Positions 13,580 through 36,163 are shown, counted from the stretch's first letter. The stretch: DNA of 64,000 bases from Bacteroidota bacterium (GCA_041658205.1 JBBAAO010000002.1:55310-119309); one strand, 5' to 3'. Notes: generated by a model not told the origin, from the sequence alone. A program made the numbers and translations.

Positions 13580-13586
13580 GAATACG

Positions 13587-13692
13587 CAGAGGTTACTCCC
13601 AAAAACAAATCACACATCCACCAACTAGAAACACGTGAGAAATAAAATCAGGGCGTAACCTCTGAACCGAGGTTGTGTATCGCTTTTTTTAT
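13587..13692 (+). promoter_or_regulatory. candidate transcription attenuator with mutually exclusive antiterminator and terminator
   Basis: cagaggttac (13587-13596) is perfectly complementary to gtaacctctg (13655-13664). The same downstream segment also forms aacctc/tgaacc/gaggtt (13657-13674) plus gcg...cgc, followed by a T-run (13684-13690) just before ilvB. Confidence 0.4.
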
Positions 13693-13706
13693 TTTTCAGG
13701 TGTCCT

Positions 13707-15476: not shown

Positions 15477-16004
15477 ATGAGTAATACTGTTGAAGTACCA
15501 TTAGTTCAAACGTCACACAAACACACAATTTCCGTGCTGCTGGAAAATAAATTCGGCGCTCTGAATCGAGTTGCCGGAATGTTTTCTGCAAAAGGATACA
15601 ATCTTGAAAGTATTACTGTTGGTCCGACAGAAGACAGTTCTATTTCACGGATGACAATTGTTACACGCGGTGACGACGCCATTATTGAACAAATCATCAA
15701 ACAGCTCAATAAATTAATTGATACACTGAAGGTGGTTGATCTTACATACGACAGCTTTATGGAACGGGAACTCGCGTTGATTAAGATCGGAACAACGACA
15801 GATAGTCGTCCGGAGATTATGCAGATTGTCGAAATTTTCCAAGGGAAAATAATTGATATTAGTCATAAAACATTAACCGTTGAAGCAACAGGGAGCGGTC
15901 AAAAAGTAGATGCGATCATTAAAATGTTAAAACCATTCCATATCAAAGAGATAGCCCGTACCGGGAGAGTTGCTTTAAAAAGAGAATTTGTCGGAGAAGT
16001 ATAA
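15477..16004 (+). CDS. ilvN: acetolactate synthase small (regulatory) subunit
   Basis: 175 aa; ACT domain '[34 protein letters not shown]'; starts 3 nt after ilvB. Confidence 0.9.
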
Positions 16005-16006
16005 CT

Positions 16007-19000
16007 ATGAAAGAACCGTATCAACATCAGGATAATTTTCCGTTATACGATCCGCGCAACGAACACGATGCATGCGGTATCGGATTTATTGTGAACATCA
16101 AAGGAGAACGGTCCCACGATGTCATCAGTAAAGGAGTTGAGATTCTTATCAATTTAACGCATCGCGGTGCATGCGGCTGCGATCCTGAAACGGGGGATGG
16201 AGCAGGCATTACGATACAAATCCCTCATAAATTTTTTGTGAAAGAATGTAAGACCTTAGGAATTACTCTTCCGGAGGAAGGGGAGTATGGAGTTGGAATG
16301 GTATTCCTGCCGGTGAATCAATCTTCACGTTTGGTGTGCGAAGGGATCATGGAGCGTATTGTGCGGGAAGAAGGATTGAGTGTTCTCGGATGGCGTGATG
16401 CTCCGGTTGGCGCAGATGCAATAGGTCGTATCGCCCGCACTTCGCAGCCTTATATTGAGCAAATCTTCGTTCGCCGTGCGGAGGGAATGACAAGGGAAGA
16501 ATTCGATCGTAAATTATATGTTGTCCGTAAACGGGCGGAGGCAGAATTATATACTTCCGACATTAAAGAAAAAGATTTCTTTTACATTCCGTCGTTATCA
16601 TCCCGTGTGATTATCTATAAAGGACTATTGCTGGCGCCGCAAATCAAACAGTTCTATAGCGAGTTGTTGGATCCAGACACTGAAAGCGCACTCTGTCTTG
16701 TGCATCAACGGTTTTCCACGAACACTATGCCGAACTGGCAACTGGCACATCCGTTCCGTTTCGTGAGTCATAACGGAGAGATCAACACCATGCGTGGTAA
16801 TGTTATTTGGATGCATGCACGGCAATCGGTGTTGAAATCCGATTTGTTCGGAGATGATCTTAAAAAATTATTTCCCATTATCCAACCAGACGGAAGTGAT
16901 TCTGCAGCGTTAGATAATGCTGTTGAATTATTATATCACTCCGGCCGAAGTCTGCCGCATGTGATGGCAATGCTGATTCCCGAAGCGTGGAGCATGGATG
17001 TCACCATGTCTCCGGAGAAAAAAGCATTCTATGAATATCACGCATCGCTGATGGAACCATGGGACGGCCCGGCAGCTGTTGCTTTTACGGATGGAAAAGT
17101 AATTGGTGCAACGCTGGATCGTAACGGATTGCGACCTGCTCGATACATTGAAACACACGACGGATTATTGATTATGGCGTCCGAAGTCGGTGTTCTTCAG
17201 ATTGAACCGGAGCGGGTGAAGATGAAAGGAAGACTGGAGCCGGGAAAAATGCTGCTGGTGGATCTTGAACAGAAACGTGTGATTCTGGATGAAGAAATTA
17301 AATCGCAATTAAGCTCTCGCAAGCCGTACGGCAACTGGATTAAAGAAAATCAGATCACCATTGAACAGCTTGCCGAACCTCCGCGCGCACATATGTTGAG
17401 CGAAAAAGATATTATTCAGCGTCAGAGAATGTTCGGCTACAGCGATGAAGATGTACGGATGATTGTCACTCCGATGGCGGTGAACGGGGAAGAAGCGATC
17501 GGTTCTATGGGAACCGATACACCGCTTGCGTGTTTATCCGACAAACCGCAATCGTTATTCAACTACTTCAAACAATTGTTTGCTCAGGTGACAAATCCGC
17601 CGATCGATCCGATCCGCGAAGAATTCGTCATGTCATTAACAAGTTACATTGGAACGGAAAGAAATATTCTTGAAGAGACACCGCAGCATTGTCATACATT
17701 AAAACTGCAGCATCCGATTTTAACTAATGTAGAATTGGAAAAACTCCGCCGCGTTTCGCAGGGAGATTTTCTGACGACAACATTGCCCATGTTGTTCCGT
17801 GTGAATGGTGGAGAACAGGAATTGGAGCGGGCGCTTGAAGGATTGTGCCGCCGCGCCTCATTGGCGATTGAATCCGGTTATTCTATTATCATTCTTTCCG
17901 ATCGTGGATCCGACGAAGAGTATGCACCCATTCCGAGCTTGCTTGCAATGACAGCGGTTCACAATCACTTGGTGCGAGAAAAAACGCGAACACAGGTTGC
18001 ACTCGTTGTGGAGTCAGGCGAACCACGCGAAGTGATGCACTATTGTTTGTTGATAGGGTATGGTGCAAGCGCCGTCAATCCTTATCTCGCAATCGAAACA
18101 ATTGAAGACCTTGCCAATAAAGGACGTTTATCAAAAGACGTGACAGCAGAATATGCTGTGAAAAACTACAAAAAGGCTGTCGGAAAAGGATTATTGAAAG
18201 TCTTTTCGAAGATGGGAATTTCGACACTGCAAAGTTATCGTGGTGCACAAATTTTTGAAGTGATTGGATTAAATAAAAATTTGATAGAAAAATATTTCAA
18301 CGGAACATCTTCCCGTATTGAAGGGATTGGATTGGATGTAATTGTGGAAGAGGCAAGACGTAAACATGAGTTTGCGTTGCAATCAATCTCGCATGCGAAC
18401 ACAGAACTTGATCTTGGAGGAAATTATCACTTCAGAATCAATGGTGAACGTCATTTAATCAATCCAACAACTGTAACGAAACTGCAACAGTCAGTCCGAA
18501 AGAGAGATTTCAAAACATTCAAAGAGTTCACCGGCATTTTGAATGATCAGAATAAAGAATTTTTCACTTTGCGCGGATTGATGGAATTCAGAGAAGGAAC
18601 GCGAAGTGTCCATATTGAAGATGTTGAGCCGGCAAAACAGATTGTGAAACGTTTTGTGACAGGAGCGATGTCGTACGGATCCATTAGTAAAGAAGCGCAC
18701 GAGACGATAGCGATTGCAATGAATCGCATCGGTGGAAAATCCAATACGGGAGAGGGGGGAGAAGATGAATCGCGTTTCAGTTCCGATGCGAATGGAGATC
18801 TTCGACGCAGCGCCATTAAACAAGTTGCATCCGGAAGATTTGGCGTGACAGCGAATTATCTTGTCAATGCCGATGAGATTCAAATTAAAATTGCCCAGGG
18901 AGCGAAACCGGGCGAAGGGGGACAACTTCCCGGATTCAAAGTGGATGAAGTGATTGCAAAAACTCGCCATTCAATTGCTGGCGTCGGTCTGATATCTCCA

Positions 19001-20545
19001 CCACCGCATCACGACATCTATTCTATCGAAGATCTTGCGCAATTGATTTATGATCTGAAGAATGTGAATCCGATAGCCAGAATTTCTGTGAAGCTTGTGT
19101 CTGAAGTTGGTGTCGGAACTGTTGCTGCCGGTGTGGCAAAAGCACATGCGGATATGATCCTGATCAGCGGCGATAGCGGCGGAACAGGTGCTTCTCCGTT
19201 AACTTCTATTAAACACGCCGGTGTGCCTTGGGAACTTGGGCTTGCGGAAACACAACAAGTGTTGGTGATGAACGATCTTCGCAGCCGCGTTCGAGTGCAA
19301 ACGGATGGAAAATTGCAAACAGGCCGCGATGTTGTTATTGCTGCATTGCTTGGTGCTGAAGAATTTGGGTTTTCAACTGCGCCGTTAATTTCTATGGGAT
19401 GTATTATGATGCGCAAGTGTCATTTGAATACATGTCCCGTCGGAATTGCAACGCAGGATCCTGAATTACGAAAGAAGTTTACCGGTACACCGGAACATGT
19501 GATCAACTTCTTTTTCTTTATCGCAGATGAAGTCCGTGAAATTATGGCGAAGCTCGGCTTCCGCACGATTGATGAAATGATCGGCCGCGTGGATATGCTG
19601 CAGCAGAGAAAAGATATTGATCATTGGAAAGCGAAAGGAATTAACCTTTCATCAATCCTACATCAACCAACAGTGCCGCTGAGAATTGGACGTCGATGTT
19701 CAATTTCTCAAGATCACGGTTTGAATGAAGCGCTGGATTATCAACTTCTTGAACAGACGAAATTGGCGCTCGAAGAGAAGAAGCCGGTAGAAATTTCTCT
19801 TCCCATCAGAAATGTTCATCGCACAGTCGGTGCGTTGCTGAGTGGGCGGATTGCAAAATATTACGGAGCAGAGGGATTGCCGGAGAGCACGATCAAAATC
19901 AATTTTACAGGATCAGCGGGGCAAAGTTTCGGAGCGTTCCTTTCTAAAGGAGTGACGTTAACGTTGGAAGGTGATGCAAACGATTATGTCGGAAAAGGTC
20001 TTTCCGGCGGAAAGATTATTATCTATCCGCCAAAAAATTCCACGTTTGTTCCCGAGGACAATTCGATTGTTGGTAACGTGGTAATGTATGGCGCAACGAG
20101 CGGCGAAGCGTATTTTGCCGGAAAAGGGGGCGAGCGGTTTGCCGTAAGAAATTCCGGTGCAACCGTCGTTGTGGAATCTGTCGGAGCAAACGGATGCGAA
20201 TACATGACAAACGGAATTGTTGTTGTGCTGGGTAAAACGGGCAAAAATTTTGCAGCAGGAATGTCCGGAGGATACGCATTCATCTTGGACGAAGACGGAG
20301 AATTCAGCTCAAAAATGTGCAACAAATCAATGGTCGATCTGGATGTAATGAATGAGGAGGACGATAAACTTGTTCAGAGCCTGATTAAAAAACATGTTGA
20401 CTTCACAGGAAGCCGACGCGGTAAAAAAATTCTTGATGAGTGGAAAACCTGCCGAACAAAATTTGTAAAAGTGTTTCCGCACGATTACAAACGTGTTTTG
20501 AATAGTGCAAAACAAAAAGTTAAACAGGAGGTAGTACATGGGTAA
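16007..20545 (+). CDS. gltB: glutamate synthase large subunit
   Basis: 1512 aa; N-terminal Ntn amidotransferase '[10 protein letters not shown]'; FMN/TIM and C-terminal domains present. Confidence 0.95.
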
Positions 20546-21959
20546 ACCGACCGGTTTTATGGAATATCAACGGGAGGTTCCGCAACGTCGTCCCGTCAAC
20601 GAACGATTGGAAGATTGGCGCGATGTCTATACGGCGTTTGGAGAAGAGAAGGTAAGGACGCAAGGCGCGCGTTGTATGGATTGTGGTGTTCCATTCTGTC
20701 AATCAGGCTGTCCTGTGAATAACGTTATTCCGCATTGGAACGACTTGATCTATAAAGATCGATGGGAAGAGGCTATACGGGTTCTTCATTCAACAAATAA
20801 CTTTCCGGAATTCACCGGCAATGTTTGTCCTGCTCCGTGCGAAGCGTCGTGTGTGCTGGGGATTAACGAACCGCCGGTGACGATTAAAGTGATAGAACGA
20901 ACGGTCATCGAATATGCTTTTAGCCATGGCTGGATCAAACCTGAACCTCCTAAAAAAAGAACAGGAAAAACAGTTGCCGTTATTGGTTCCGGTCCTTCGG
21001 GATTAGCAGCCGCGCAGCAATTGAATCGCGCCGGTCATCGTGTAACGGTGTATGAAAAGAACGATCGCGTTGGCGGATTGCTCCGATATGGAATTCCCGA
21101 TTTTAAATTTGAAAAACATTTGCTCGATCGACGTATTGAACAGTTGCAGGCAGAAGGGATTGTTTTTACAACAAAGACAAATGTCGGAGTAAATATTTCT
21201 GCCGAAGAATTACGGCGTTCATACGATGCGATATTATTATGCGGTGGAGCAGAATCTCCGCGCGATCTTAAAGTGCCGGGACGTGAACTGAAAGGAATTC
21301 ATTTTGCAATGGAATTTCTTCCCCAGCAAAATCGCCGCAACGCTGGCGACAAAACAGATCCGCTCAAAGATATTCTTGCAACCGGAAAACGGGTGGTGAT
21401 TATTGGCGGGGGTGATACCGGCGCGGATTGTCTTGGAACAAGTTTGCGTCAAAAAGCAAAATCAGTCAATCAATTTGAGATTATGCCAAAACCACCTCTG
21501 GAACGCGCAGCTTCAACACCGTGGCCTCTTTGGCCTCTGCAATTAAGAACAGAAAGTTCGCATGAAGAAGGGGGAATTCGTGACTGGGCTCTTGCAACAA
21601 CAAAATTTGAAGGAGACGCAAACGGCAATGTGACAAAATTGCACGCTATCCGCGTGGGGCCGCCGCCAAATTTTGCTCCCATCACCGGGACGGAGTTTAC
21701 GTTCGATGCTGATCTCGTGCTGCTGGCGATGGGGTTTAACGGCCCCACAAAGAATGGATTGTTAGATGAACTGGGAGTTGCTCTTGATGCAAGAAGCAAT
21801 GTTTCGACCGACAAGGAATATATGAGTTCTGTTCCAGGAATTTTTTCTGCGGGAGATATGCGACGCGGTCAATCGCTCGTTGTTTGGGCAATCAGTGAAG
21901 GACGAAAAGCAGCGCGCAGCGTCGATAAATATTTGATGGGGGTATCAACATTACCATAA
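20538..21959 (+). CDS. gltD: glutamate synthase small subunit (NADPH)
   Basis: Fe-S '[14 protein letters not shown]'; FAD/NAD '[16 protein letters not shown]'; overlaps the gltB stop by 8 nt. Confidence 0.9.
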
Positions 21960-22499: not shown

Positions 22500-23555
22500 A
22501 TGGCAAAAATCAATTTCGGCGGAACAGTAGAAGAAGTCGTTACCCGCGAAGAATATTCACTTGAGAAAGCAAAAGAATTTTTAAAGAACGAAGTTGTTGC
22601 AATTATCGGTTACGGTCCGCAAGGATACGGTCAATCGCTGAACATGCGCGACAATGGAATTAACGTTATTGTTGGCCAACGTAAAGGGGGCCAAGGATGG
22701 AGTGACGCTATCCGTGACGGCTGGATAGAAGGAAAGAATCTTTTTTCGAACATCGAAGAGGCGATCCAAAAAGGGACCATTGTTCAATATCTGCTTTCCG
22801 ATTCCGGACAAAAGCAGATGTGGGATGTGGTGAAGAAAAATTTGAAAAAAGGACAAGCGTTGTATTTTTCTCATGGATTCTCTGTGGTGTTCAAAGATCA
22901 AACCAATATTATTCCGCCAGCCGATGTGGACGTCGTTCTCGTGGCTCCCAAAGGGAGCGGGCGCACAGTACGCAGTAACTTTCTTGCAGGAAGTGGTATT
23001 AATGCAAGTTTTGCAGTGTTTCAGGATGCAACAGGAAAAGCACGCGAACGGGCAATTGCCTGTGGTATTGCAATTGGGTCAGGATATCTTTTCGCAACAA
23101 CCTTCGAAAAAGAAGTGCTTTCGGACCTTACCGGTGAGCGTGGTGTGTTAATGGGAGCGATTGCAGGTTTAATGAAAGCACAATACGATGTGCTCCGTCA
23201 GATGGGACATTCGCCGAGTGAAGCGTTTAACGAAACAGTGGAAGAAGCAACACAGAGTCTCTATCCGCTCGTTGGAAAATATGGGATGGACTGGATGTTT
23301 GCGGCCTGTTCAGTAACAGCACAGCGCGGCGCGTTGGATTGGGCAAAAAAATTCGAAACTGCGAATCGTCCATTATTTGAGTTGCTCTATCGCGATGTGC
23401 AATATGGTGTGGAGACAAAACGTGTGCTCGATTCTACCAGCGCACCGGATTACCGAGCAACACTGCAGAAAGAACTTGATGAATGGAAAAATTCCGAGAT
23501 GTGGAAAACAGGCGAAGCAGTAAGAAGTCTTCGACCGGAAAACTGGAAAAAATAA
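22500..23555 (+). CDS. ilvC: ketol-acid reductoisomerase (class I)
   Basis: 351 aa; Rossmann 'IIGYGPQGYGQSLNMRDNG'. Confidence 0.95.
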   Translation: MAKINFGGTVEEVVTREEYSLEKAKEFLKNEVVAIIGYGPQGYGQSLNMRDNGINVIVGQRKGGQGWSDAIRDGWIEGKNLFSNIEEAIQKGTIVQYLLSDSGQKQMWDVVKKNLKKGQALYFSHGFSVVFKDQTNIIPPADVDVVLVAPKGSGRTVRSNFLAGSGINASFAVFQDATGKARERAIACGIAIGSGYLFATTFEKEVLSDLTGERGVLMGAIAGLMKAQYDVLRQMGHSPSEAFNETVEEATQSLYPLVGKYGMDWMFAACSVTAQRGALDWAKKFETANRPLFELLYRDVQYGVETKRVLDSTSAPDYRATLQKELDEWKNSEMWKTGEAVRSLRPENWKK

Positions 23556-23599: not shown

Positions 23600-25168
23600 A
23601 TGAAAACAAAAATATTCACATACGATACGACGCTTCGTGATGGAACTCAAGGCGAGGAAGTTTCCTTTTCCGCCGAAGATAAAATCAAGATTGCCAAACG
23701 GCTGGATGCATTTGGCATTGATTACATCGAAGGGGGATGGCCGGGTTCCAATCCAAAAGATATGGAGTTCTTTGAGAGAGCTCGAACGATTCAATTTGTG
23801 CACGCAAAGATTGCGGCATTTGGCAGCACGCGCCGGGCAAAAAATCGCGTTGAAGATGATGCAAATATCAAAGCGCTGCTGGATGCACAAACTCCTGTCG
23901 TAACGATTTTTGGAAAAACGTGGCTGTTGCATGTGAAAGAAGCATTGCAGATCACTGAGGAAGAAAATCTCGAAATCATTTCCGATTCCGTCGCGTATCT
24001 GAAAAAGAATAGTAAAGAAGTAGTGTATGATGCGGAACATTTCTTTGACGGATATAAAACTGACAAAGCATATGCCATCAAAACACTGCAAGCAGCGCAG
24101 TCTTCCGGCGCGAACGTGATTGTTCTGTGCGACACAAACGGCGGAACGATGCCATGGGAAATTTCTTCAATCGTTGATGAGATCAAACCATTCATCACGG
24201 TGCAGCTCGGCATTCATACGCATAACGATTGCGAACTTGGTGTGGCAAATTCGCTTGCCGCTATCAAATCCGGTGCGATACATGTGCAGGGAACAATCAA
24301 CGGATACGGTGAACGTTGTGGCAATGCTAATCTCTGTTCCATCCTCCCAAATCTTGAAATCAAGTTAGGCAACGAAACCGTTGGGAGCGAACAATTAAAA
24401 AAGTTGACAGACCTTTCCCGATACGTAAGCGAATTAGCAAATTTGAAACACAGAAAAAATCAGGCTTATGTCGGTGAAAGCGCCTTTGCACACAAAGGGG
24501 GCGTTCACGTCAGTGCGGTGATGAAAACACCGAAGACATATGAGCACGTTCAGCCGGAAGTTGTTGGTAATGTGCGCAGAGTACTTGTTTCTGATCTTTC
24601 AGGAAGAAGCAATGTGTTGTATAAAGCGGAAGAGCTTGGATTGAAGATCGACGACAAATCTCCCGCCGCTCAGAAAGTTGTGGAAGAATTGAAGGAGATG
24701 GAGCATTACGGTTACTATTTTGAAGATGCGGAAGCATCGTTTGAATTGCTGGTAAAGAAACATACCGGTGAGATCAAAAAATTATTTGAACTTGAGCGAT
24801 TTAAAATCAGCATTCACAAAGATTCCGACAGCAGTGATGCGCGAAGCGAAGCGATGATTAAAATTCGTGTGGGCGACGAGACGGAAATGACCGCTGCGGA
24901 AGGAAATGGTCCGGTGAACGCAATGGACAAAGCCTTGCGCAAAGCGCTTGAACGATTTTATCCTCAATTAAAAGAAATTCAGTTGACGGATTATAAGGTG
25001 CGAGTGCTCGATTCTCAGAATGCTACCGCAGCAAAAGTTCGTGTATTAATCGAAACAAAAAACGGAACATCATCCTGGAACACCGTTGGTGTTTCATCGG
25101 ATGTTGTTGACGCCAGTTGGAAGGCGTTGGTCGATTCCATCACCTATCACTTATTAAAGAGGAAGTAA
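23600..25168 (+). CDS. cimA: citramalate synthase-type LeuA-family enzyme (CimA/LeuA2 subfamily)
   Basis: '[16 protein letters not shown]' with '...[16 protein letters not shown]' and a C-terminal LeuA-dimerisation-like domain. ORF-track start 23576; the Met at 23600 is preferred. Confidence 0.7.
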
Positions 25169-25178
25169 GGAAAAACAA

Positions 25179-26192
25179 ATGATTGTTGTCTTAAAACCCG
25201 GAACAAAAAAAGAAGAATACGAACACGTTATTGAACGCGTAAAAGAATATGGTTTTAAACCGCATCCAATCGTCGGCGAAGAGCGGACGGTGATTGCCTG
25301 TGTCGGCGATGAGCGTGGCAAAGCACAACTGCAGCAATTGGAATCGTTGGAATATGTTGAAAATGTCGTACCTATCTTAAAACCATTTAAACTTGCCAGC
25401 AACGAAACGAAAGCGCGATCCGTTGTTAAAGTGGGAAATGTAGAATTTGGAAGCGCACAATTTGTTGTGATTGCCGGTCCGTGTTCCGTTGAATCGAAAG
25501 AACAGATCGAATTAAGCGCGGAACAAGTAAAAAAAGCGGGAGCACAAATGCTCCGTGGGGGCGCGTTTAAGCCTCGCACATCTCCATATTCGTTCCAGGG
25601 ACTTGAAGAAGAAGGATTAAAACTTCTCGCTGCAGCTCGTGAAAAGACCGGACTACCATTCGCAACCGAAGTGATTTCCCCAAGTGATGTTGAGCTTGTT
25701 GCAAAATATTCCGACATGCTTCAGATCGGTGCGCGAAATATGCAAAATTTTGCTCTGCTGAAAGAAGTTGGTAAAACAAAACGTCCGATATTGCTCAAAC
25801 GAGGAATGTCCAGCACGTATAAAGAATTATTGATGTCAGCGGAATATATCATGTCCCAAGGAAATTACAATGTTGTTTTATGTGAGCGCGGAATCCGCAC
25901 CTTTGAAGATTATACGCGTAACACGTTCGATCTTACCGCTGTTCCGGCATTAAAAGAAATGTCACATTTGCCGGTGATTGTTGATCCGAGTCATGGTACC
26001 GGAATCCGCAGTTTAATTCCGCCAATGGCAAAAGCGGCTGTCCCTGTCGGAGCAGATGGTATCATTATTGAAGTGCATCCAAATCCGGAAAAAGCATTTT
26101 CGGACGGCGCACAATCTTTGATGCCGGATCAATTTTCAAAACTGATGGATGATATACGACGATATTTACCGTTAGAGAACAGACATTTATAA
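25179..26192 (+). CDS. 3-deoxy-7-phosphoheptulonate (DAHP) synthase, class I-beta with N-terminal regulatory domain
   Basis: 337 aa; ~75-aa N-terminal extension, then 'IAGPCSVES' and 'GGAFKPRTSPYSFQG' (KPRTS distinguishes DAHPS from KDO8PS). Confidence 0.8.
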   Translation: MIVVLKPGTKKEEYEHVIERVKEYGFKPHPIVGEERTVIACVGDERGKAQLQQLESLEYVENVVPILKPFKLASNETKARSVVKVGNVEFGSAQFVVIAGPCSVESKEQIELSAEQVKKAGAQMLRGGAFKPRTSPYSFQGLEEEGLKLLAAAREKTGLPFATEVISPSDVELVAKYSDMLQIGARNMQNFALLKEVGKTKRPILLKRGMSSTYKELLMSAEYIMSQGNYNVVLCERGIRTFEDYTRNTFDLTAVPALKEMSHLPVIVDPSHGTGIRSLIPPMAKAAVPVGADGIIIEVHPNPEKAFSDGAQSLMPDQFSKLMDDIRRYLPLENRHL

Positions 26193-26247
26193 CGACGCGG
26201 CAGGTCGGCATTAATGCCATCCTGCCAATACATATGCTGAGGAATAT

Positions 26248-27795
26248 ATGAGTGATCGAGTATACATTTTTGATACAACACTGCGCGACGGAGAGCAATC
26301 TCCCGGTGCGAGTATGAATTTTGTCGAAAAAATCAGAATGGCAAAGCAGTTGGAACAGCTACAGGTGGATGTGATTGAAGCGGGATTCCCGATTGCGAGC
26401 GAAGGGGATTTTGAATCGGTAAAAGAAATTGCCAAACAAATTCGCACCGTAACGATTGCAGGATTGTGTCGTGCAAATAATAATGATATCGATCGGGCGT
26501 GGGAAGCACTACGGCATGCAGAAAAACCGCGTATTCATACATTCATCGCTACGTCGGACATTCATCTAAAATATAAGTTGAAAAAGACACGAGATGAAGT
26601 TCTGGAAAATGCGATCAAGGCGGTGCGCAGGGCAAAATCGTACTGCGACGATGTAGAATTTTCCTGTGAAGATGCTTCGCGAACCGATATTGATTTTCTC
26701 TGCAAAGTGGTCGAAGCGACAATTGCTGAAGGTGCTACTGTTGTAAACATTCCAGATACTGTTGGATATTCAGTTCCAACAGAATATGGTACAATTATCC
26801 GTACGTTGATGGAACGGGTTCCGAATATTAATAAGGCGATTGTGAGTGTTCATTGCCACGACGATCTTGGATTAGCCGTTGCGAATTCATTGGCTGGTGT
26901 TATGAACGGCGCACGACAAATTGAATGCACGATTAATGGTATCGGGGAGCGTGCAGGAAATGCATCCTTGGAAGAGATTGCAATGGCTATCCGTACGCGC
27001 AGCGAAGCATTAAAAGTATCAACAAACATCAGCACCGAAGAGATTTATCGATCAAGCAAAATGCTAGTATCGCTGACAGGAATGCATATCCAGCGCAATA
27101 AAGCAATCGTTGGCGAAAATGCATTTGCGCACGAAGCAGGGATCCATCAGGATGGAATGCTCAAAAATCCGTTGACGTATGAGATTATGACTCCCGAAAG
27201 TGTCGGTATAAAACACAGCACGCTGGTGCTCGGAAAACATTCCGGACGCCATGCGTTGAAACAACGATACGAAGAACTTGGATACAAACTGTCTGCCGAA
27301 GAATTGGAAAAAGCGTATTCCTTGTTCAGCAAACTTGCTGATGAAAAGAAACAAGTGTTTGATGACGATCTTGTTGCGCTTCTTCAGGATGAACTTTCTT
27401 CAGTAGAAGAAACATATACGATTGAAACGCTACAAGTGACAAGTGGATTAAACATTGTTCCGACCGCAACCGTTGGTTTGAAAAAAGGAAGTCAATTCCT
27501 GCAAGATTCTTCCACAGGTGACGGACCGGTTGATGCAGCATACCGCGCCATTGAACGAATCACCAACATTAATGCAGATCTTTTGGACTATTCCATTAAG
27601 TCTGTTTCGTGGGGACAGGATGCGATAGGAGAAGTCTTTGTGAAGATAGCGATCGACGGATATGTGTTTAACGGCCGCTCGGCAAGTACCGATGTAATCA
27701 CCGGAAGCGTCAAAGCATATGTGAATGCAATTAATCATGCAATTGCGGCGCGATATCGAAAACAACAATCAACAAGCGAAAACGTTGGAGTATAA
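26248..27795 (+). CDS. leuA: 2-isopropylmalate synthase
   Basis: 515 aa; '[13 protein letters not shown]' and regulatory C-terminal domain. Confidence 0.9.
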
Positions 27796-27831: not shown

Positions 27832-29130
27832 ATGGCAATGACGATCACCGAAAAAATTTTAGCAAAACATTCCGGAAGAAACTCCGTGCAGCCCGGCGAC
27901 AATGTGTGGATTGATGTCGACGTGTTGATGACGCACGATGTGTGTGGACCGGGAACCTTCGGAATTTTTAAACGAGAATTCGGACAGAATGCAAAAGTAT
28001 GGGATAAAGATAAACTCGTTGTCATACCGGATCATTACATCTTTACAAAAGATATGCATGCAAACCGCAACATCCAGATCCTGCGCGATTTTGCAAAAGA
28101 ACAAGACCTTCCGCATTATTTTGATGTTGGCACATCCCGCTATAAAGGTGTTTGCCATGTTGCCATGCCTGAAGAAGGATTTACCCGTCCCGGCGAAGTA
28201 TTGTTTGGCACGGATTCGCACACATGTACTGCCGGAGCGTTTGGTGAGTTTGCGACTGGAATTGGAAATACCGATGCAGCGTTTGTTCTCGGAACAGGAA
28301 AGCTGTGGGTAAAAGTTCCCGAAACAATGAAGTTTATCTTCGAAGGGGAAATGCCAAGATATTTAATGGCGAAAGATCTCATTCTTGCCGTCATTGGAAA
28401 AATCGGTGTGGATGGTGCAACATACCGCGCAATGGATTTCAGCGGCTCCACCGTTGATGCTATGACGATGGAAGACCGTATGACGTTGTGTAATATGGTG
28501 ATTGAAGCGGGTGGAAAGAACGGCATCTGTACGCCGGATAAAACAACTATGGATTACGTCAGCGCCCGCACAAATAAAAAGTTTGAATGTTTTTTGAATG
28601 ATACGGATGCAAAGTATCACTCTGTTCACCGATTTAATGTGAACGAAATCGAACCGACTATTGCTAAACCGCACTCTCCGGACAATAAAGCGTTCGTGAG
28701 CGAAGTCGCCGGAACAAAACTGGATCGCGCATACATCGGCAGTTGTACCGGCGGGAAGATTTCGGATTTCATTGCTGCTGCTGAGATTTTGTACGGCGAA
28801 AAAGTAAAGATCGATACATTTATCGTTCCGGCGACAACGGACGTTGCCAACCAGATTAAAACAATCAGAGTAAAAGGGAAAACGGTGATGGAGATTTTTG
28901 AAGATGCGGGATGTCGCATTGGTGACTCATCATGCGCCGCATGTTTGGGAGGACCATCCGATACATTCGGACGGTTGAACGGAGCGGAAGTTTGCATTTC
29001 GTCCACAAACAGAAATTTTCCCGGGCGAATGGGTTCCAAGAAATCGCAAGTATATCTTGCATCGCCGTACACCGTCGCGGCATCGGCAGTCAAAGGGGTT
29101 ATCACGAATCCCCGCGAATTTTTTAATTAG
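27832..29130 (+). CDS. leuC: 3-isopropylmalate dehydratase large subunit
   Basis: 432 aa aconitase-family protein; 'DSHTCTAGAFGEFATGIGNTD'. Confidence 0.9.
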   Translation: MAMTITEKILAKHSGRNSVQPGDNVWIDVDVLMTHDVCGPGTFGIFKREFGQNAKVWDKDKLVVIPDHYIFTKDMHANRNIQILRDFAKEQDLPHYFDVGTSRYKGVCHVAMPEEGFTRPGEVLFGTDSHTCTAGAFGEFATGIGNTDAAFVLGTGKLWVKVPETMKFIFEGEMPRYLMAKDLILAVIGKIGVDGATYRAMDFSGSTVDAMTMEDRMTLCNMVIEAGGKNGICTPDKTTMDYVSARTNKKFECFLNDTDAKYHSVHRFNVNEIEPTIAKPHSPDNKAFVSEVAGTKLDRAYIGSCTGGKISDFIAAAEILYGEKVKIDTFIVPATTDVANQIKTIRVKGKTVMEIFEDAGCRIGDSSCAACLGGPSDTFGRLNGAEVCISSTNRNFPGRMGSKKSQVYLASPYTVAASAVKGVITNPREFFN

Positions 29131-29194: not shown

Positions 29195-29758
29195 ATGAAA
29201 GCAATCATTAAAGGAAAAGCATTCGTTCTTGGAAATGACATCGACACCGATCAGATTATTCCGGCGGCTCACCTTGTCTATAAATTAGATGATATTGATG
29301 AAAAGAAAAATTACGGCAGATATGCATTCTCCGGAGTTCCAATTGAACAATCGGGCCTGCCGCAAGGAAACATTCCTTTCATTAAAGAAGGGGAATGGCA
29401 GAGTGATTATCGTATTGTTATCGGCGGAAAGAACTTTGGATGTGGATCGTCACGTGAACATGCACCATTCGCACTGCAAGTTGCAGGGATTGAAGCGGTG
29501 ATTGCTGAAGGATATGCCCGTATTTTTTATCGCAACGCCATTGATGGCGCATTTATTGCTCCGTTTGAATCGACGCAGCATTTGGCAAAAGAGATTAAAA
29601 CGGGAGATGAACTTGAATTGGACACAACAAAATGTTCATTAAAGAATCTCACACAAAACAAAGAATATCAACTCAGCCCGCTTGGAGATATTGAACATAT
29701 TCTTCGTGGTGGGGGAATATTTGAGTATGCGAGAAAATCCGGAATGCTGCAGAAATAA
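29195..29758 (+). CDS. leuD: 3-isopropylmalate dehydratase small subunit
   Basis: 187 aa; 'GKAFVLGNDIDTDQIIPA' LeuD signature. Confidence 0.9.
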   Translation: MKAIIKGKAFVLGNDIDTDQIIPAAHLVYKLDDIDEKKNYGRYAFSGVPIEQSGLPQGNIPFIKEGEWQSDYRIVIGGKNFGCGSSREHAPFALQVAGIEAVIAEGYARIFYRNAIDGAFIAPFESTQHLAKEIKTGDELELDTTKCSLKNLTQNKEYQLSPLGDIEHILRGGGIFEYARKSGMLQK

Positions 29759-29783: not shown

Positions 29784-30608
29784 ATGTTAAATAAAACAAT
29801 AGCTATTATCGGTGCTGGAAATATGGGAACCGCGTTGATTCGTGGAATCCTGAACGCGAAACTGACAAGTGCGAAAAAGATTTACGCCAGCGGCACGAGA
29901 ATAGAAAAGCTGGAAAAACTTTCTGCAGAGTACGGCATTAATGTAACAACAAACAATAAAGATGCCGCCAAACATGCAGACATTGTTGTCCTTTGTATCA
30001 AAGCATCGGTGATTCGTTCTGTGCTGGAAGAGATGCACAAAGTGCTGCATAAAGGACAACTTGTTATCTCCATTGCGGCCGGTGTTACAACGGAATCCAT
30101 GGAAAAAATTATCGGAAAAAACATGCCGGTTATTCGCTGCATGCCGAACATTGCATCAACAGTAGGACTCGGATCTACGGCAATATCATTTGGTCGATAT
30201 GTTCATTCAGCGCAGCACGATGTAGCCATTAAAATTTTTGAAGCTGTCGGCGATGTCGTCGTTGTTGGTGAACAGCATCTTGATGCAGTAACAGGATTAA
30301 GCGGCAGCGGTCCTGCGTACATTTACATGGTAATCGAAGCGCTTATTGACGGTGGTGTAAAGATGGGATTACCACGCGATATTTCGACAAAACTTGCCAT
30401 TCAAACCGTTCTTGGTTCTGCAAAACTGGTGAAGGAATCAAATGTCCATCCTGCAATTTTGCGCGATCAGGTAACCACTCCAGGCGGTACAACAATCAAC
30501 GCAATTCACGAACTGGAATCGCACGGTTTGAGGTCGATGTTAATTGATGCCGTGGCAACAGCGACGAGGCGTTCAAAAGAACTCTCGGAATTAATCAACA
30601 AGCATTAA
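29784..30608 (+). CDS. proC: pyrroline-5-carboxylate reductase
   Basis: 'IAIIGAGNMGTAL' Rossmann plus ProC C-terminal dimerisation domain. The start at 29784 (MLNKT...) is preferred over the ORF-track start 29682, which overlaps leuD. Confidence 0.85.
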   Translation: MLNKTIAIIGAGNMGTALIRGILNAKLTSAKKIYASGTRIEKLEKLSAEYGINVTTNNKDAAKHADIVVLCIKASVIRSVLEEMHKVLHKGQLVISIAAGVTTESMEKIIGKNMPVIRCMPNIASTVGLGSTAISFGRYVHSAQHDVAIKIFEAVGDVVVVGEQHLDAVTGLSGSGPAYIYMVIEALIDGGVKMGLPRDISTKLAIQTVLGSAKLVKESNVHPAILRDQVTTPGGTTINAIHELESHGLRSMLIDAVATATRRSKELSELINKH

Positions 30609-30650: not shown

Positions 30651-31718
30651 ATGAAGAAAACGATTACAGTAATTTCCGGTGACGGGATCGGTCAAGAAGT
30701 TGTTGCAGGTGCTCTGCAAGTGTTAGATGTTGTCGCAACAAAATTTCATCACACGTTTGAATTACAAAATGCGTTAGCCGGCGGCGCAGCGTTGGATGCT
30801 ACAGGAATTCCTCTTCCCGAAGAGACGCTGAAACTTTCCAAAGCAAGCGATGCCGTTCTGCTCGGTGCAGTCGGCGGTCCAAAATGGGATTCCAATCCTC
30901 AGCACTTAAAACCGGAACGAGCATTGCTGGGACTTCGCAAAGAACTTGGTTTGTATGCAAATATTCGCCCCGCAAAAATTTATTCTGCCCTTGTCGATGC
31001 ATCGTCATTGAAGAAAGAGATTGTAAACGGTGTTGATATTATTGTTGTTCGTGAATTGACCGGCGGATTATATTTCGGTAAGCCAAGCGGATTTGAAACA
31101 AGAAACGGCGAAGAGGTCGGATTTAATACAATGATCTACTCGGAGTCGGAAGTGCAACGAATTGCCGTGTCGGCTTTTGAGATTGCACGAAAACGGAAAA
31201 AGAAATTATGTTCCGTAGACAAAGCTAATGTATTGGAAACGTCGCAATTATGGCGAAGAGTTATTTTGAACGTTGCAAAACAATATCCCGACGTTGAACT
31301 CTCTCATATGTATGTGGACAATTGTTCAATGCAGTTAATCCGTAACCCCAAACAGTTTGATGTTATTGTTACGGAGAATCTCTTCGGCGATATTCTCAGC
31401 GATGAAGCGGCTATGTTAACCGGTTCTATCGGAATGCTTGCTTCAGCCAGTCTTGGCGGAACTGTTGCAATGTACGAACCGGTGCATGGCAGCGCGCCGG
31501 ATATTGCGGGACAAAATAAAGCGAATCCAATTGCGACTATCGCTTCCGTAGCGATGATGTTGAAATATTCTTTTAATCTTAACACAGAATCCGATGCAAT
31601 TGAAAATGCTATAGAGAATGTGTTGAGTAAAGGATTCCGCACGGGAGATATTTATACTGAAGGAACAACATTGCTTGGAACAAAAGAAATGGCTTCAAAA
31701 ATTATTGAATGTATGTAA
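30651..31718 (+). CDS. leuB: 3-isopropylmalate dehydrogenase
   Basis: 355 aa; '[14 protein letters not shown]' and isocitrate/isopropylmalate dehydrogenase family core. Confidence 0.95.
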
Positions 31719-31823: not shown

Positions 31824-33215
31824 ATGCTTACAATGAAATTTGGCGGAACATCGGTCGGCGATGTTCCCAGACTGCAGGAAGTTGTTTCAATCGTCAAACA
31901 ATTTTTGAAAGACCAGCCGGTGGTTGTTGCTTCGGCGATGGGAGGACTGACCAATGTACTGCTCGATACAGCACAAAAAGCGGTCGAACGGAAGTCCGGT
32001 GAAGTGAACAATGCCATTGCAGCAATTCGAGAAAGGCACTTACAAATTGCAAACGCCATGATTCATGATTATCCCCGGCGTGCTGCGCTGATCAAAAATC
32101 AACAGGATTCGATCAATGAACTAGCTAATTTCTATCATGGCGTGAGTCTTTTGCGTGAACTTTCGCCCCGTTCACTTGATGCGATTGCATCATTCGGAGA
32201 AATCCTATCATGTATGCAGATTGCTGCTATTTTTGAGGAAAACGGCATCAAATCCCAATTTATTGATGCGCGAACAATTATTCAAACCGACGATAATTTT
32301 GGAGAAGCTTCTGTCGATTTCTCCGTTTCGAATAAAAAAATCAACGAAACAATTTCACCACTTGTATCCAAAGGGATTGTTCCTGTTGTGACCGGATTTA
32401 TTTCGTCTACAGAGGATGGAATAACAACAACAATTGGTCGAAGTGGTTCGGATTATACCGGCTCAATTGTTGGTTCTGCCATTAACAGTAAAGAAATCTG
32501 GATCTGGACGGATGTTGACGGTGTTATGACTGCCGATCCTCGATTTGTCAAAGGGGCACAAGTGCTCTCGGAAATTTCCTACCGCGAAGCAGCGGAGATG
32601 AGTTATTTTGGTGCAAAGGTTATTCATCCAAAGACAATGGTTCCGGCAATCGAGAAAAAGATTCCGATTCGGATTAAGAATACATTTAATCCGGAACACC
32701 AAGGAACGCTTATTTCAGCAAAACCGAATCACGGAGGAACATCAGCAAAAACGGTGACATCCATCGACAATCTTGCCATTATTGCAATTGAAGGAAATGG
32801 AATGATCGGCGTGCCGGGTGTTTCTGCAAGAATTTTTTCAGCATTAGCACGCGCTCAAGTAAACGTCATGATGATATCGCAGGCGTCATCGGAACATAAT
32901 GTCTGTATTCTTGTTCCCAAAAAAGATAGTGCGAACGGTGTAAAAGTGCTGCGGGATGAATTCAGTATTGATATTGCAAAGAAAATTATTGATGCTGTTA
33001 CTGTAAAAGAGACCGTTTCCATTGTTGCGGTGGTTGGAGAAGGAATGATTGGCACGAAAGGAATTGCCGGGAGAACATTTGATGCAGTTGCAAAAGCAGA
33101 TGTGAATATCATTGCGATTGCACAAGGCTCGTCCGAATTGAATATCTCGTTCGTTGTTGATCAAAAAGATGCCAAAAAATCGGTGCAGGCTGTGCACGAT
33201 TCGTTTTATCAATAG
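31824..33215 (+). CDS. aspartate kinase (monofunctional, tandem ACT domains)
   Basis: 'MKFGGTSVGD' kinase N-terminus; two C-terminal ACT regions; alternative start at 31833. Confidence 0.9.
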   Translation: MLTMKFGGTSVGDVPRLQEVVSIVKQFLKDQPVVVASAMGGLTNVLLDTAQKAVERKSGEVNNAIAAIRERHLQIANAMIHDYPRRAALIKNQQDSINELANFYHGVSLLRELSPRSLDAIASFGEILSCMQIAAIFEENGIKSQFIDARTIIQTDDNFGEASVDFSVSNKKINETISPLVSKGIVPVVTGFISSTEDGITTTIGRSGSDYTGSIVGSAINSKEIWIWTDVDGVMTADPRFVKGAQVLSEISYREAAEMSYFGAKVIHPKTMVPAIEKKIPIRIKNTFNPEHQGTLISAKPNHGGTSAKTVTSIDNLAIIAIEGNGMIGVPGVSARIFSALARAQVNVMMISQASSEHNVCILVPKKDSANGVKVLRDEFSIDIAKKIIDAVTVKETVSIVAVVGEGMIGTKGIAGRTFDAVAKADVNIIAIAQGSSELNISFVVDQKDAKKSVQAVHDSFYQ

Positions 33216-33311: not shown

Positions 33312-33548
33312 ATGCAAAAATATCAAAGCATCAGCTGTTCGTATTATGATCAACTGGAAGCATATGCGACAAAACGCACACACTGTTCCATCATCTATAG
33401 TGATGATTCAGAAAAAATTATCGATGGTGTTATTGTGGATGTCTATGCAAAAGAAGGTGCGGAATATTTAAAACTTGACAACGGAACCGTGATTCGATTG
33501 GATTATCTTCTATCGATCAACGGTATTCCTGTCAGCAATATTTGCTAA
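33312..33548 (+). CDS. rof: Rof/YaeO-like Rho-binding antiterminator family protein
   Basis: 78 aa; 'YQSISCSYYDQLEAYA...EGAEYLKLDNGTVIRLDYLLSI' aligns along its length to E. coli Rof ('YQPINCDDYDNLELAC...KNVEYLVV...ELRLDKITSF'). Confidence 0.7.
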   Translation: MQKYQSISCSYYDQLEAYATKRTHCSIIYSDDSEKIIDGVIVDVYAKEGAEYLKLDNGTVIRLDYLLSINGIPVSNIC

Positions 33549-33549: not shown

Positions 33550-34821
33550 ATGAAATCGATCTTAAAAAGTATAACAACCGGAACCGAATATCCACTTAAC
33601 GAAGTCCGATTCACATCGGACAACGGTGAATTGCTGGATGTGATTCATGATTTTGATGCAATTCGGAAACAATATTCAATTTCCCGCGAATATTTTTCTA
33701 CTAAACGATCCACGATCAACGGTCAGCCGAGCGGCGGCGTTTGGCATTTTAAAGAATTAGTCTTACCGACAATCGCGGAATCGGAGATTGTTTCCAAACA
33801 GGAAGGAAATACACGGCTATACCGCAGCAAAAAAATCTCCTCATGGCTTGGATTGAATTCAGAAAAATTCTTTTTAAAGCATGAAGGAGAAAACCCCACC
33901 GGTTCGTTTAAAGATCGTGGAATGACTGTTGCTATAACACAAGCAAAAGCGCTGCATCAAAAAGCGGTGACGTGTGCATCCACAGGAAATACGTCAGCAT
34001 CACTGGCTGCTTATGCTTCAGAAGCGGAATTGACGGGAATTGTGCTCATTCCCAAGGGGAATGTGGCTGTTGGAAAAATTTCGCAGGCGCTTGCATACGG
34101 AACAAAAACACTTGTTGTCGATGGAGACTTTGATGATTGCATGCGGATGATCCGCGAGGCGCAGGAAAAACTTTCCGCGTATCCACTCAATTCCATCAAT
34201 CCATTCAGACTTGAAGGGCAAAAGACAATCATGTGGGAAATTTTGCTTCAACTGAACTGGCAAATTCCCGATTGGATTGTTTTTCCCGGAGGGAATCTTG
34301 GGAATACCAGCGCATTCGGAAAAGCGCTGCATGAAGCAAAAGAACTTGGTCTGATCGATAGGCTTCCCAGGTTCGCGGTGATTCAAGCAGAAGGGGCAAG
34401 TCCGTTTTACAAAGCGTATAAAAATAATTTTTCCGGATTGAAAACGGAAAAGGCAGATACTATTGCTACTGCAATTAAAATCGGTGATCCAGTAAACTAC
34501 TCCAAAGCCGTGCGTGCATTACGGTGGACAAACGGAATTGTGGAAAGCGTCACAGATGAAGAAATTCTGGAAGCAAAAGCGAATGTTGATGCTGCGGGTA
34601 TCGGCGCAGAACCGGCTTCGTGTGCAACGGTGGCAGGAATAAAAAAATTGATTGCCAGCGGCGAGATAAAAACAAGCGAAACCGTCGTCGGAATACTGAC
34701 GGGAAACATATTGAAAGATCCGCAGGTGATTGTTGATTACCATTTTAACCGAAAAACGGCTCTCGCAAATCCGCCAAACGAAATAAAAGCAGACATTAGT
34801 GATTTAAGAAAATATCTTTAA
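33550..34821 (+). CDS. thrC: threonine synthase
   Basis: 423 aa PLP enzyme; lysine motif 'GSFKDRGMT'; starts 2 nt after the rof-like stop. Confidence 0.9.
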   Translation: MKSILKSITTGTEYPLNEVRFTSDNGELLDVIHDFDAIRKQYSISREYFSTKRSTINGQPSGGVWHFKELVLPTIAESEIVSKQEGNTRLYRSKKISSWLGLNSEKFFLKHEGENPTGSFKDRGMTVAITQAKALHQKAVTCASTGNTSASLAAYASEAELTGIVLIPKGNVAVGKISQALAYGTKTLVVDGDFDDCMRMIREAQEKLSAYPLNSINPFRLEGQKTIMWEILLQLNWQIPDWIVFPGGNLGNTSAFGKALHEAKELGLIDRLPRFAVIQAEGASPFYKAYKNNFSGLKTEKADTIATAIKIGDPVNYSKAVRALRWTNGIVESVTDEEILEAKANVDAAGIGAEPASCATVAGIKKLIASGEIKTSETVVGILTGNILKDPQVIVDYHFNRKTALANPPNEIKADISDLRKYL

Positions 34822-34853: not shown

Positions 34854-35240
34854 ATGACTGTCGAAAATCTCAATCGCATTTCGAAGACAATTCTTGATGC
34901 GTGTATTACTGTTCATCGGGAAATGGGGCCTGGTTTATTAGAATCAATTTATGAGCTATGTCTGTTGGATGAGCTTCAACAAAGAGGATTAGTAGTTGCA
35001 AGCCAAGTTTCAATTCCTTTGAGGTTTAAGGGAAAAGAGCTATCCAAAGATTTTCGTATCGATATTCTTGTTGAAAACGAAATAGTTTTAGAAATTAAAG
35101 CGGTTGACATTTTGCTGCCAGTACATGAAGCACAAATAATCTCATACTTAAAGTTAACAGATAAGAGATTAGGCTTTTTGATCAATTTTAATGTTCCGTT
35201 ATTAAAAAATGGTTTTAAACGATTCGTTCACAATTTTTAA
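34854..35240 (+). CDS. GxxExxY family protein (PD-(D/E)XK-like fold)
   Basis: 128 aa; 'GPGLLESIYE' GxxExxY motif plus conserved 'RIDILVENEIVLEIK'; visibly AT-richer than neighbours. Confidence 0.8.
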   Translation: MTVENLNRISKTILDACITVHREMGPGLLESIYELCLLDELQQRGLVVASQVSIPLRFKGKELSKDFRIDILVENEIVLEIKAVDILLPVHEAQIISYLKLTDKRLGFLINFNVPLLKNGFKRFVHNF

Positions 35241-35272: not shown

Positions 35273-36163
35273 ATGCAAATAAAAATTCCCTGTTCCACCT
35301 CTAATCTCGGTCCCGGATTTGATACGCTTGGTTTGGCGTTGAATCGGTTTCTCTATCTTTCCGCAGAACAATCAAACGGATTGACAATCATTGTTGAAGG
35401 AAACGGCAAGGAACATATTGCTACCGACGCGACGAATCTTGTTTATGCAGCAATGACTTCAACAGTCCAAAAAGTTGGAAGAACAATACCAGCGATACAC
35501 CTTCATATTAAAAATGAAATTCCGTCATACGGCGGACTTGGAGGGAGTGGTGCAGCGATTGCCGGCGGTGTTTTTCTTGCGAATGAATTGTTGAAAATGA
35601 AATTATCAAAAGATGATATGTTGAATATCGCTGTGGAAATTGAAGGACATCCTGATAATGTTTCCGCTGCGATATTTGGCGGATTAACAGTAAACAGTTT
35701 CGATGCGGAAAGAAAAGTTCATTGCCGGAGTATTAATATAAAAAAACCACTTTCCGTTATTACCTGCTCTCCTCATTTTCAGGTACAGACGAAAGAAGCA
35801 CGGAAGATTCTTCCACAGCAAGTTCCCCTTAAAGATGCTGTCACCAATATCGAAAATGCAGCATCCCTTGTTGCTGCAATGATGAGTGGAGATTTTGAAG
35901 CATTACGCTATGTGACTACTGATCGTCTCCATGAACAATACCGTGCCACACTTATTCCCGGATATGCCGATGTTCAGAAAGCAGCACTCGATGCCGGTGC
36001 ATTATCCTTCAACATTAGCGGCGCAGGACCAACAGTCTTTGCGTTTGCCGTTGCACACGAACAACAGATTGCCGCCGCCATGAAACAGGCGTTCGAACGG
36101 AACGGACAACAGGCAACATCAGAAGTGATATCCGTAGAAAATTCCGGTGCGACTCTTCTCTAA
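35273..36163 (+). CDS. thrB: homoserine kinase
   Basis: GHMP kinase motif 'SNLGPGFDTLGLAL'. Confidence 0.9.
   Translation: MQIKIPCSTSNLGPGFDTLGLALNRFLYLSAEQSNGLTIIVEGNGKEHIATDATNLVYAAMTSTVQKVGRTIPAIHLHIKNEIPSYGGLGGSGAAIAGGVFLANELLKMKLSKDDMLNIAVEIEGHPDNVSAAIFGGLTVNSFDAERKVHCRSINIKKPLSVITCSPHFQVQTKEARKILPQQVPLKDAVTNIENAASLVAAMMSGDFEALRYVTTDRLHEQYRATLIPGYADVQKAALDAGALSFNISGAGPTVFAFAVAHEQQIAAAMKQAFERNGQQATSEVISVENSGATLL

Follow-up and report, generated by a model that had tools for sequence, protein, structure and literature searches.

A putative amino-acid supraoperon with a DAHP synthase gene between cimA and leuA, preceded by a candidate leader attenuator, in an Ignavibacteria-like member of the Bacteroidota

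Why should the gene for the entry enzyme of the aromatic pathway lie between those for citramalate synthase (cimA) and 2-isopropylmalate synthase (leuA)? The question is raised by positions 23,600-27,795 of a 64,000-nt stretch of a Bacteroidota metagenome-assembled genome (MAG; GCA_041658205.1, JBBAAO010000002.1:55310-119309), hereafter the window, whose positions serve as coordinates throughout and whose host is an uncultured Ignavibacteria-like member of the phylum. There, a 3-deoxy-7-phosphoheptulonate (DAHP) synthase (DAHPS) gene separates two paralogues of the LeuA family. The explanation that we consider probable is a vertically inherited supraoperon, in which CimA and LeuA would share one LeuCD/LeuB set, the DAHPS would be an ordinary one, and transcription would be gated by an attenuator.

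Two LeuA-family open reading frames (ORFs) about 1 kb apart, the first of the CimA type and the second a canonical LeuA, had been claimed in the original prediction, and both points were borne out: the coordinates are exact, the motifs it quoted are present, and the genes are spaced by 1,079 nt. The cimA start is the ATG at 23,600 and not an upstream TTG: the N termini of homologues agree with it, the gene caller chose the same start on contig L001, which is identical (L-numbers denote fetched comparison loci), and the product has 522 aa. Against NCBIfam, it reached 776 bits with the citramalate synthase model TIGR00977 (cut-off 450) vs. 278 bits with the LeuA model TIGR00973 (cut-off 598.7); the next-best model after TIGR00977 was NF002085 (317 bits, cut-off 517), and all LeuA, NifV, and homocitrate-synthase models remained far under their own cut-offs. 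Conversely, the leuA product scored 758 bits with TIGR00973 and 799 with NF002086 (cut-off 532), against only 208 with TIGR00977; scores of this order lie far outside the range of chance. Both proteins, which are 28% identical, carry HMGL-like (PF00682), HCS_D2 (PF22617), and LeuA_dimer (PF08502) domains, the last being C-terminal, and regulatory in CimA. In the CimA of Leptospira interrogans (LiCMS), the C-terminal regulatory domain is inhibited by isoleucine. LiCMS (PDB 3BLE) and Methanocaldococcus jannaschii CimA catalyze the same reaction with the LeuA-family fold common to all; the window CimA stands outside both of their subfamilies (NF042433, 153 bits, cut-off 950; TIGR02090, 265 bits, cut-off 485) and matches 3BLE only at E=1.5e-25. 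The motifs TTLRDGTQ and HTHND (RDGxQ and HxH classes) are present, the protein is ~59% identical to CimA of Geobacteraceae genomes, and its gene is associated with leuCD/leuB and ilv genes in the presence of a separate bona fide leuA. The product of 23600-25168 is thus best read as a citramalate synthase, with a predicted specificity for pyruvate. GenBank has the names citramalate synthase (MFA5834223.1) and 3-deoxy-7-phosphoheptulonate synthase (MFA5834224.1) for the two products, from a Bacteroidota MAG contig of 799,774 bp; the enzymes and the pathway are already known and publicly annotated, and no enzyme is itself new.

The pathway reading follows from these family assignments and from the citramalate route established in Geobacter, Leptospira, methanogens, and Chlorobium. 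CimA would condense pyruvate and acetyl-CoA to (R)-citramalate, which the single LeuCD/LeuB set would carry to 2-oxobutyrate while also converting the 2-isopropylmalate made by LeuA to 2-oxoisocaproate; IlvBN and IlvC of the same operon would take 2-oxobutyrate towards isoleucine, and IlvD and IlvE, outside the window, would finish the route. CimA would then be the committed step towards isoleucine and LeuA that towards leucine, with one isomerase/dehydrogenase pair common to both. As had been proposed, both paralogues lie upstream of one leuC, one leuD, and one leuB, and the gene content fits a citramalate route sharing these enzymes, with ilvBN and ilvC also in the string. The reported lack of ilvA in the window likewise agrees with NCBIfam scans that took in every ORF of 120 aa or more and with a tblastn search using Escherichia coli IlvA, which gave only a ThrC cross-match over the window and 170 fetched loci (~2.3 Mb). 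This absence within the window is uninformative on the genome, because the indispensable ilvD and ilvE are also outside it.

The closest parallel is Geobacter sulfurreducens CimA (GSU1798), which belongs to the same family, TIGR00977, and follows the same logic of CimA with shared LeuCD/LeuB. A passage of PMC12131731 states that Geobacter has both isoleucine routes, and summarizes Risso (2008), where cimA deletion slowed the growth of G. sulfurreducens and most isoleucine flux passed via pyruvate. Geobacter also has ilvA, whereas the window stretch is without it. In both, an aspartate kinase gene (ask) is linked to cimA; however, in Geobacter-like genomes cimA directly follows ask, away from the ilv and leu genes, whereas in the window it lies between ilvC and the DAHPS gene within an ilv-leu operon. 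For Chlorobium, also of the Fibrobacteres-Chlorobi-Bacteroidetes (FCB) group, the citramalate route is cited in a passage of PMC7826400, and a literature search combining Ignavibacteria and citramalate found no paper linking the two. If the assignment is correct, the pyruvate route to isoleucine would extend to an abundant uncultured Ignavibacteria-like clade, which would be useful for metabolic reconstruction from MAGs.

The gene between the paralogues had been described as a class I-beta DAHPS with an N-terminal regulatory domain, a description supported by 500 bits with NF006421 (cut-off 335), by 403 bits with TIGR01361 (cut-off 268), and by the succession of PF18152 DAHP_snth_FXD (residues 1-68, E=2.7e-23), a ferredoxin-like (ACT-like) domain, and the PF00793 barrel. 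A 3-deoxy-D-manno-octulosonate 8-phosphate (KDO8P) or NeuB-type synthase was rejected for 25179-26192, the corresponding models falling far under their cut-offs (e.g., TIGR01362 for KDO8PS, 128 bits vs. 314). The product is 51% identical to Thermotoga maritima DAHPS (1RZM/3PG9) and collinear with it from end to end, including the ferredoxin-like domain; in the alignment, the Cys/His/Glu/Asp metal-ligand positions (which we take to be C102, H272, E298, and D309 of T. maritima), His29, and the LKPG loop are kept. The clade enzyme differs from that of T. maritima by its location in a branched-chain amino-acid operon and by an Ile, throughout the clade, at the position of Ser31 (motif HPI(V/Y/F)G vs. 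HISKG). In T. maritima, His29 and Ser31 presumably contact the tyrosine hydroxyl. Phe/Tyr inhibit the T. maritima enzyme by way of its ferredoxin-like domain (PMC6362186), and by analogy the domain encoded here most likely binds Tyr/Phe, as would suit an ordinary Thermotoga-type enzyme of shikimate-pathway entry.

Two readings at the level of the proteins would give the neighborhood another meaning. The first paralogue might belong with other 2-oxoacid condensing enzymes, for instance as a second isopropylmalate synthase or as a homocitrate synthase, considering that specificity within the LeuA family is hard to assign from similarity alone and that Joint Genome Institute (JGI) pipelines label CimA homologues '2-isopropylmalate synthase'; with the profile scores given above, a bona fide LeuA 1 kb away, the Geobacteraceae orthologues, and the label citramalate synthase from the Prokaryotic Genome Annotation Pipeline (PGAP), we regard this as very unlikely. 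Still less credible is a ferredoxin-like domain retuned to a branched-chain amino acid or other non-aromatic effector, which would make the cimA-leuA position meaningful at the protein level. The clade-wide replacement of Ser31 speaks for it; however, the simpler consequence of losing a hydroxyl-binding Ser would be a shift of preference from Tyr towards Phe, the domain is otherwise highly similar to that of T. maritima, with His29 and the LKPG loop retained, and we detected no other sign of an altered ligand.

The position of the DAHPS gene is better understood from the wider gene string. ORF and profile scans of the window revealed 18 protein genes and a leader ORF over 22.7 kb of one strand, in the order leader-ilvB-ilvN-gltB-gltD-DUF2141-ilvC-cimA-DAHPS-leuA-leuC-leuD-proC-leuB-ask-(small ORF)-thrC-GxxExxY-thrB (Table 1). 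Intergenic gaps are at most 127 nt throughout, with 10 nt from the cimA stop to the DAHPS start, and a terminator scan gave no convincing + strand terminator inside the string; from the small gaps and the lack of internal terminators, co-transcription of the whole string is likely. Moreover, GC content is even over the operon.

CimA homologues at 65-93% identity all belong to Bacteroidota/Ignavibacteria MAGs, and the order cimA-DAHPS-leuA was found in L090 (CimA identity 91%), L088 (85%), L082/L083 (78%), L089 (77%), L084/L085 (75%, Ignavibacteriales GCA_026390575.1), and L002 (71%), while in L169 cimA-DAHPS is visible up to the end of the locus. In addition, the CimA and DAHPS match lists have at least 20 contigs in common, some of only 3.6-9.9 kb, a length at which adjacency is forced. 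A wider survey covered 80 diverse CimA loci from GTDB genomes among the matches listed, a set that did not contain the closest genomes; here DAHPS lay between cimA and leuA in a single locus, L002, an Ignavibacteriae MAG. Other FCB loci (L003 and L005, Balneolaceae; L007, KSB1; L022 and L060, Calditrichia) show ilvB-ilvN-ilvC-cimA-leuA-leuC-leuD-leuB with nothing between cimA and leuA, and Geobacter-, Nitrospira-, and Thermodesulfovibrio-like genomes show ask-cimA. The best 120 matches of the DAHPS orthologue search were all at least 77% identical and inside the clade, and DAHPS identity follows that of the neighbors (91/91, 85/91, 78/78, 75/71, and 71/74). This parallel and the even GC content point to a lineage-specific arrangement, with one ancestral insertion of DAHPS followed by vertical descent, and on the same grounds a recent horizontal transfer of the gene was discarded.

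In this context, DAHPS would have entered between cimA and leuA in the clade ancestor, and proC, gltB(D), and the ask-thr genes would have joined the same ancestral ilvBNC-cimA-leuACDB operon. Two further loci, L092 (ilvB 72%), where DAHPS is in the operon yet after ilvC, and L086 (CimA 66%), with gltBD-cimA-proC-thrA-thrB-thrC and without DAHPS, suggest that this lineage repeatedly packed genes of several amino-acid pathways around cimA, DAHPS being one of them. The original prediction had called the position of DAHPS unexpected; its rarity among diverse CimA loci upholds this, whereas the idea of a special cimA/leuA-DAHPS module does not stand, because DAHPS shares its lineage-specific supraoperon with other foreign-pathway genes (gltBD, proC, ask, thrCB). 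The arrangement is unusual and probably undescribed. The Bacillus subtilis aromatic (aro-trp-his-tyr) supraoperon is a mixed-pathway example, likewise with several amino-acid pathways in one transcription unit; unlike it, the window operon joins branched-chain, glutamate, aromatic entry step, proline, and threonine genes, in another lineage. What is newly seen is modest: a clade-specific supraoperon with DAHPS, proC, glutamate synthase (GOGAT), and ask-thr genes added to an ilv-cimA-leu operon, and a candidate Ile/Leu leader attenuator ahead of it.

Some of the added genes vary among the relatives. The DUF2141 gene between gltD and ilvC was seen only in the window genome and the identical contig L001, being absent there in L090, L167, and L084, and looks like a very recent insertion. 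The ilvN-ilvC slot holds NADPH-type gltB and gltD in the window, L090, L084, and L167; one large-subunit gene, 50-51% identical and without gltD, in L082 (4270-8820), L088 (12325-16764), L089 (12306-16790), and L169 (12574-17097); and is empty in L002, so that the GOGAT type looks to have been swapped at one operon position. proC lies between leuD and leuB in the window, L002, and L084, and directly after cimA in L086 (11659-12528), a recurrent cimA-proC linkage for which an obvious pathway logic is wanting. Furthermore, ask directly precedes cimA in many Desulfuromonadota, Nitrospirota, Methylomirabilota, and related genomes (L010, L011, L017, L027, L036, L041, L048, L056, L058, and L063, among others); the ask-cimA linkage is widespread, and ask is also in the window operon.

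The candidate attenuator occupies the 387-nt mnmE-ilvB intergenic region, which holds a promoter-like site, a 49-codon ORF, and a hairpin with a U-tract. Of the 49 codons, 21 encode Ile, Leu, or Val, and the ORF ends in ...LLPLSGIIILLGITFAILRLIIIS. Just after its stop codon, the segment CAGAGGUUACUCCC folds back onto CUUUUGGGAAUUAC, inside the Leu-Leu-Gly-Ile codons, as hairpin 1:2; the same segment can pair with GGGCGUAACCUCUG, which includes the 5' arm of the terminator, so that antiterminator and terminator are mutually exclusive. The U-tract ends 10 nt ahead of the ilvB ATG, and the leader region is predicted to fold more stably than its shuffled versions (z = -4.4). By its predicted pairings, the region shows the classical 1:2 / 2:3 / 3:4 attenuator layout, and transcription of the string would probably be gated by ribosome-mediated attenuation upstream of ilvB: a ribosome stalled at the Ile-Ile-Ile-Leu-Leu codons would leave region 2 free to pair with region 3, and no terminator would form before ilvB. 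An Rfam scan of the window at gathering thresholds matched no family and a tRNA scan found none, so that the window falls under no riboswitch, T-box, or leader family known so far.

The leader resembles those of the E. coli ilvGMEDA, ilvBN, and leu operons and the candidate ilvB leaders described in Actinobacteria (PMC1262725) in its short ORF with runs of Ile/Leu/Val codons and, as in the known ilv/leu attenuators, in its predicted alternative 1:2, 2:3, and 3:4 hairpins, with a U-tract terminator that immediately precedes the first structural gene. It differs from them in its unrelated sequence, without a match to any Rfam family (Leu_leader included), in its length and the invariance of its C-terminal half, and in preceding an operon that also contains GOGAT, DAHPS, proC, ask, and thr genes. 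ILV-rich small ORFs at most 450 nt upstream of ilvB were also observed in more distant FCB and deltaproteobacterial loci (L003, L005, L096, and L117 of the FCB group, together with L053 and L069), for example MSINILSLDIVILGITIISLLSIIIVG and ...LSILISGIILLNLILIIQ, and may be independent ilvB leader peptides.

Sixteen homologous leader ORFs were identified in public data, with variable N-terminal and almost invariant C-terminal halves, and each one whose context was fetched sits immediately ahead of the ilvB of this operon. The candidate attenuator is conserved in at least 10 relatives. Among codon pairs for the same amino acid, 16% differ in codons 29-49 and 26% in codons 1-28, vs. 48% in ilvB of the same genomes, a suppression of synonymous variation that denotes constraint at the RNA level. 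For the comparison of helices, 10 sequences were aligned, of which 7 are close. Pairing in the antiterminator is 92.7%, vs. 27-45% in slid controls, with one compensatory change (A-U to G-C, in L089). In hairpin 1:2 it reaches 92% for helix 1 and, with 5 doubly changed pairs, 79% for helix 2; for hairpin 1:2 and terminator together the figure is 80.8%, with 6 pairs changed on both sides. The terminator is intact in the 7 closest relatives. Taken together, leader conservation and pairing are suggestive of an attenuator, not decisive.

Several observations weigh against the explanation that we favor. The covariation is thin, with its one compensatory pair in the antiterminator and six in hairpin 1:2 plus terminator from so few and mostly close sequences, and shuffle controls were marginal; the terminators of L082, L089, and L002 differ and are weaker, with no clean U-tract terminator in the same register. 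The invariant hydrophobic C-terminus of the leader could be the transmembrane helix of a real small protein, and in Streptomyces coelicolor a similar-looking ilvB leader did not act as a classical attenuator (PMC1262725). The promoter scan used cannot detect Bacteroidota-type promoters within the string, and ilvA could be located elsewhere in the genome, so that isoleucine synthesis independent of threonine is only a possibility. Combined, some of these points describe a different locus, where the gene order is a neutral accident devoid of regulatory meaning, DAHPS and the other foreign-pathway genes have internal promoters, and the small ORF encodes a genuine hydrophobic membrane peptide; the fluid operon content (DUF2141 here only, the changed GOGAT type, DAHPS after ilvC in L092) would also suit it. 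We consider this account unlikely, because the cimA and DAHPS genes nearly abut without internal terminators, the arrangement persists to 71% CimA identity, and conservation at synonymous positions is about threefold higher in the small ORF than in ilvB, a difference that constraint on the peptide alone does not account for. The terminator directly before ilvB has a U-tract and a 5' arm exactly complementary to the segment after the leader stop codon.

With attenuation as the preferred reading, placement between cimA and leuA would couple DAHPS transcription to the ilv leader, and fine control of each pathway would be left to allosteric domains, namely LeuA_dimer in CimA and LeuA, ACT in IlvN and Ask, and the ferredoxin-like domain in DAHPS. 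If the attenuator works, transcription of the gene for the aromatic entry enzyme, of proC, and of the glutamate synthase and threonine genes would be tied to branched-chain amino-acid supply. The locus would then illustrate cross-pathway control in compact form, in a phylum whose regulation is poorly known, and this regulatory side is of more interest than its enzymes. A further step, which we put forward tentatively and with more doubt than confidence, is that one Ile/Leu/Val-sensing leader gates the entire supraoperon, with acetohydroxyacid synthase (AHAS), CimA, LeuA, DAHPS, aspartate kinase, GOGAT, and ProC as entry or key enzymes of five amino-acid families, that the charging of branched-chain tRNAs serves as a proxy for general amino-acid starvation, and that DAHPS was recruited under that signal. 

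Table 1. Leader elements and genes of the putative supraoperon, in window coordinates
Feature	Position	Strand	Basis or remark
Sigma-70-like promoter match, TTGACA-16-TATCTT	13356-13383	+	Consensus match only; FCB promoters may differ
Candidate leader peptide ORF, 49 codons, MPAYNKHTENISKRSRVRVVAVPVALLPLSGIIILLGITFAILRLIIIS	13430-13579	+	III-LL and III codon runs
Hairpin 1:2 (anti-antiterminator), predicted	13533-13604	+	5' arm in Leu-Leu-Gly-Ile codons, 3' arm right after stop codon
Antiterminator 2:3, predicted	13587-13664	+	CAGAGGUUACUCCC (13587-13600) pairs with GGGCGUAACCUCUG (13651-13664), 13 pairs
Intrinsic terminator, predicted	13653-13696	+	Stem 13653-13662 / 13669-13678, loop UGAACC, U-tract 13684-13696
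ilvB, acetolactate synthase large subunit	13707-15473	+	TIGR00118, 830 bits
ilvN, acetolactate synthase small subunit	15477-16004	+	NF008864, 222 bits
gltB, NADPH glutamate synthase	16007-20545	+	NF008730, 1793 bits
gltD, NADPH glutamate synthase	20538-21959	+	TIGR01317, 724 bits
DUF2141 gene, 148 aa	21985-22431	+	PF09912, 132 bits
ilvC, ketol-acid reductoisomerase	22500-23555	+	TIGR00465, 320 bits
cimA, (R)-citramalate synthase, TIGR00977 / Geobacter type	23600-25168	+	NCBIfam, Pfam, GenBank name
Class I-beta DAHP synthase (DAHPS)	25179-26192	+	NCBIfam, Pfam, T. maritima alignment
leuA, 2-isopropylmalate synthase	26248-27795	+	NCBIfam, Pfam
leuC, small archaeal / hacA-type isopropylmalate isomerase	27832-29130	+	NF001614, 508 bits; TIGR01343, 476 bits
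leuD, small archaeal / hacA-type isopropylmalate isomerase	29195-29758	+	TIGR02087, 120 bits
proC, pyrroline-5-carboxylate reductase, between leuD and leuB	29784-30608	+	
leuB, 3-isopropylmalate dehydrogenase	30651-31718	+	TIGR00169, 519 bits
ask, aspartate kinase	31824-33215	+	
Small Rof-like ORF	33312-33548	+	
thrC	33550-34821	+	
GxxExxY/PDDEXK_3 gene	34854-35240	+	
thrB	35273-36163	+	

Other genes of the string showed minor particularities. The Rof-like ORF, of 78 codons, fills the ask-thrC gap, its stop lying 1 nt ahead of thrC; identity as Rof (Rho-binding antiterminator) was not assigned, the PF07073 match (E=0.002, 18.6 bits) being below the gathering score. The gene of the GxxExxY / PDDEXK_3 nuclease superfamily sits between thrC and thrB, a homologue is found exactly at the operon break after leuC in L082 (15964-16338), and another occurs in L025 (6254-6607); these genes may be markers of operon rearrangement points. 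The window LeuD, of 187 aa, has an insertion of ~20-30 residues relative to the 157-position TIGR02087 profile, and the LeuC type varies inside the clade, being of the small type with 432 aa in the window and of the bacterial type, with 470 aa and ~31% identity, in L084, L091, and L092. In L084 (14955-17796), an Asp/Glu-racemase-family gene precedes leuC, and a methyltransferase gene lies between leuC and leuD.

Elsewhere, the window contains mnmE/mnmG/rsmG, proteins sorted by the type IX secretion system (T9SS), and housekeeping genes, a content that suits the FCB group. Sorting domains of T9SS type A were detected on three large secreted proteins encoded on the - strand (42807-44927, 52658-54004, and 57526-59550), which are glycosyl-hydrolase-like, a Ycf48-like beta-propeller, and a subtilisin-like protease, in agreement with an FCB-group origin.

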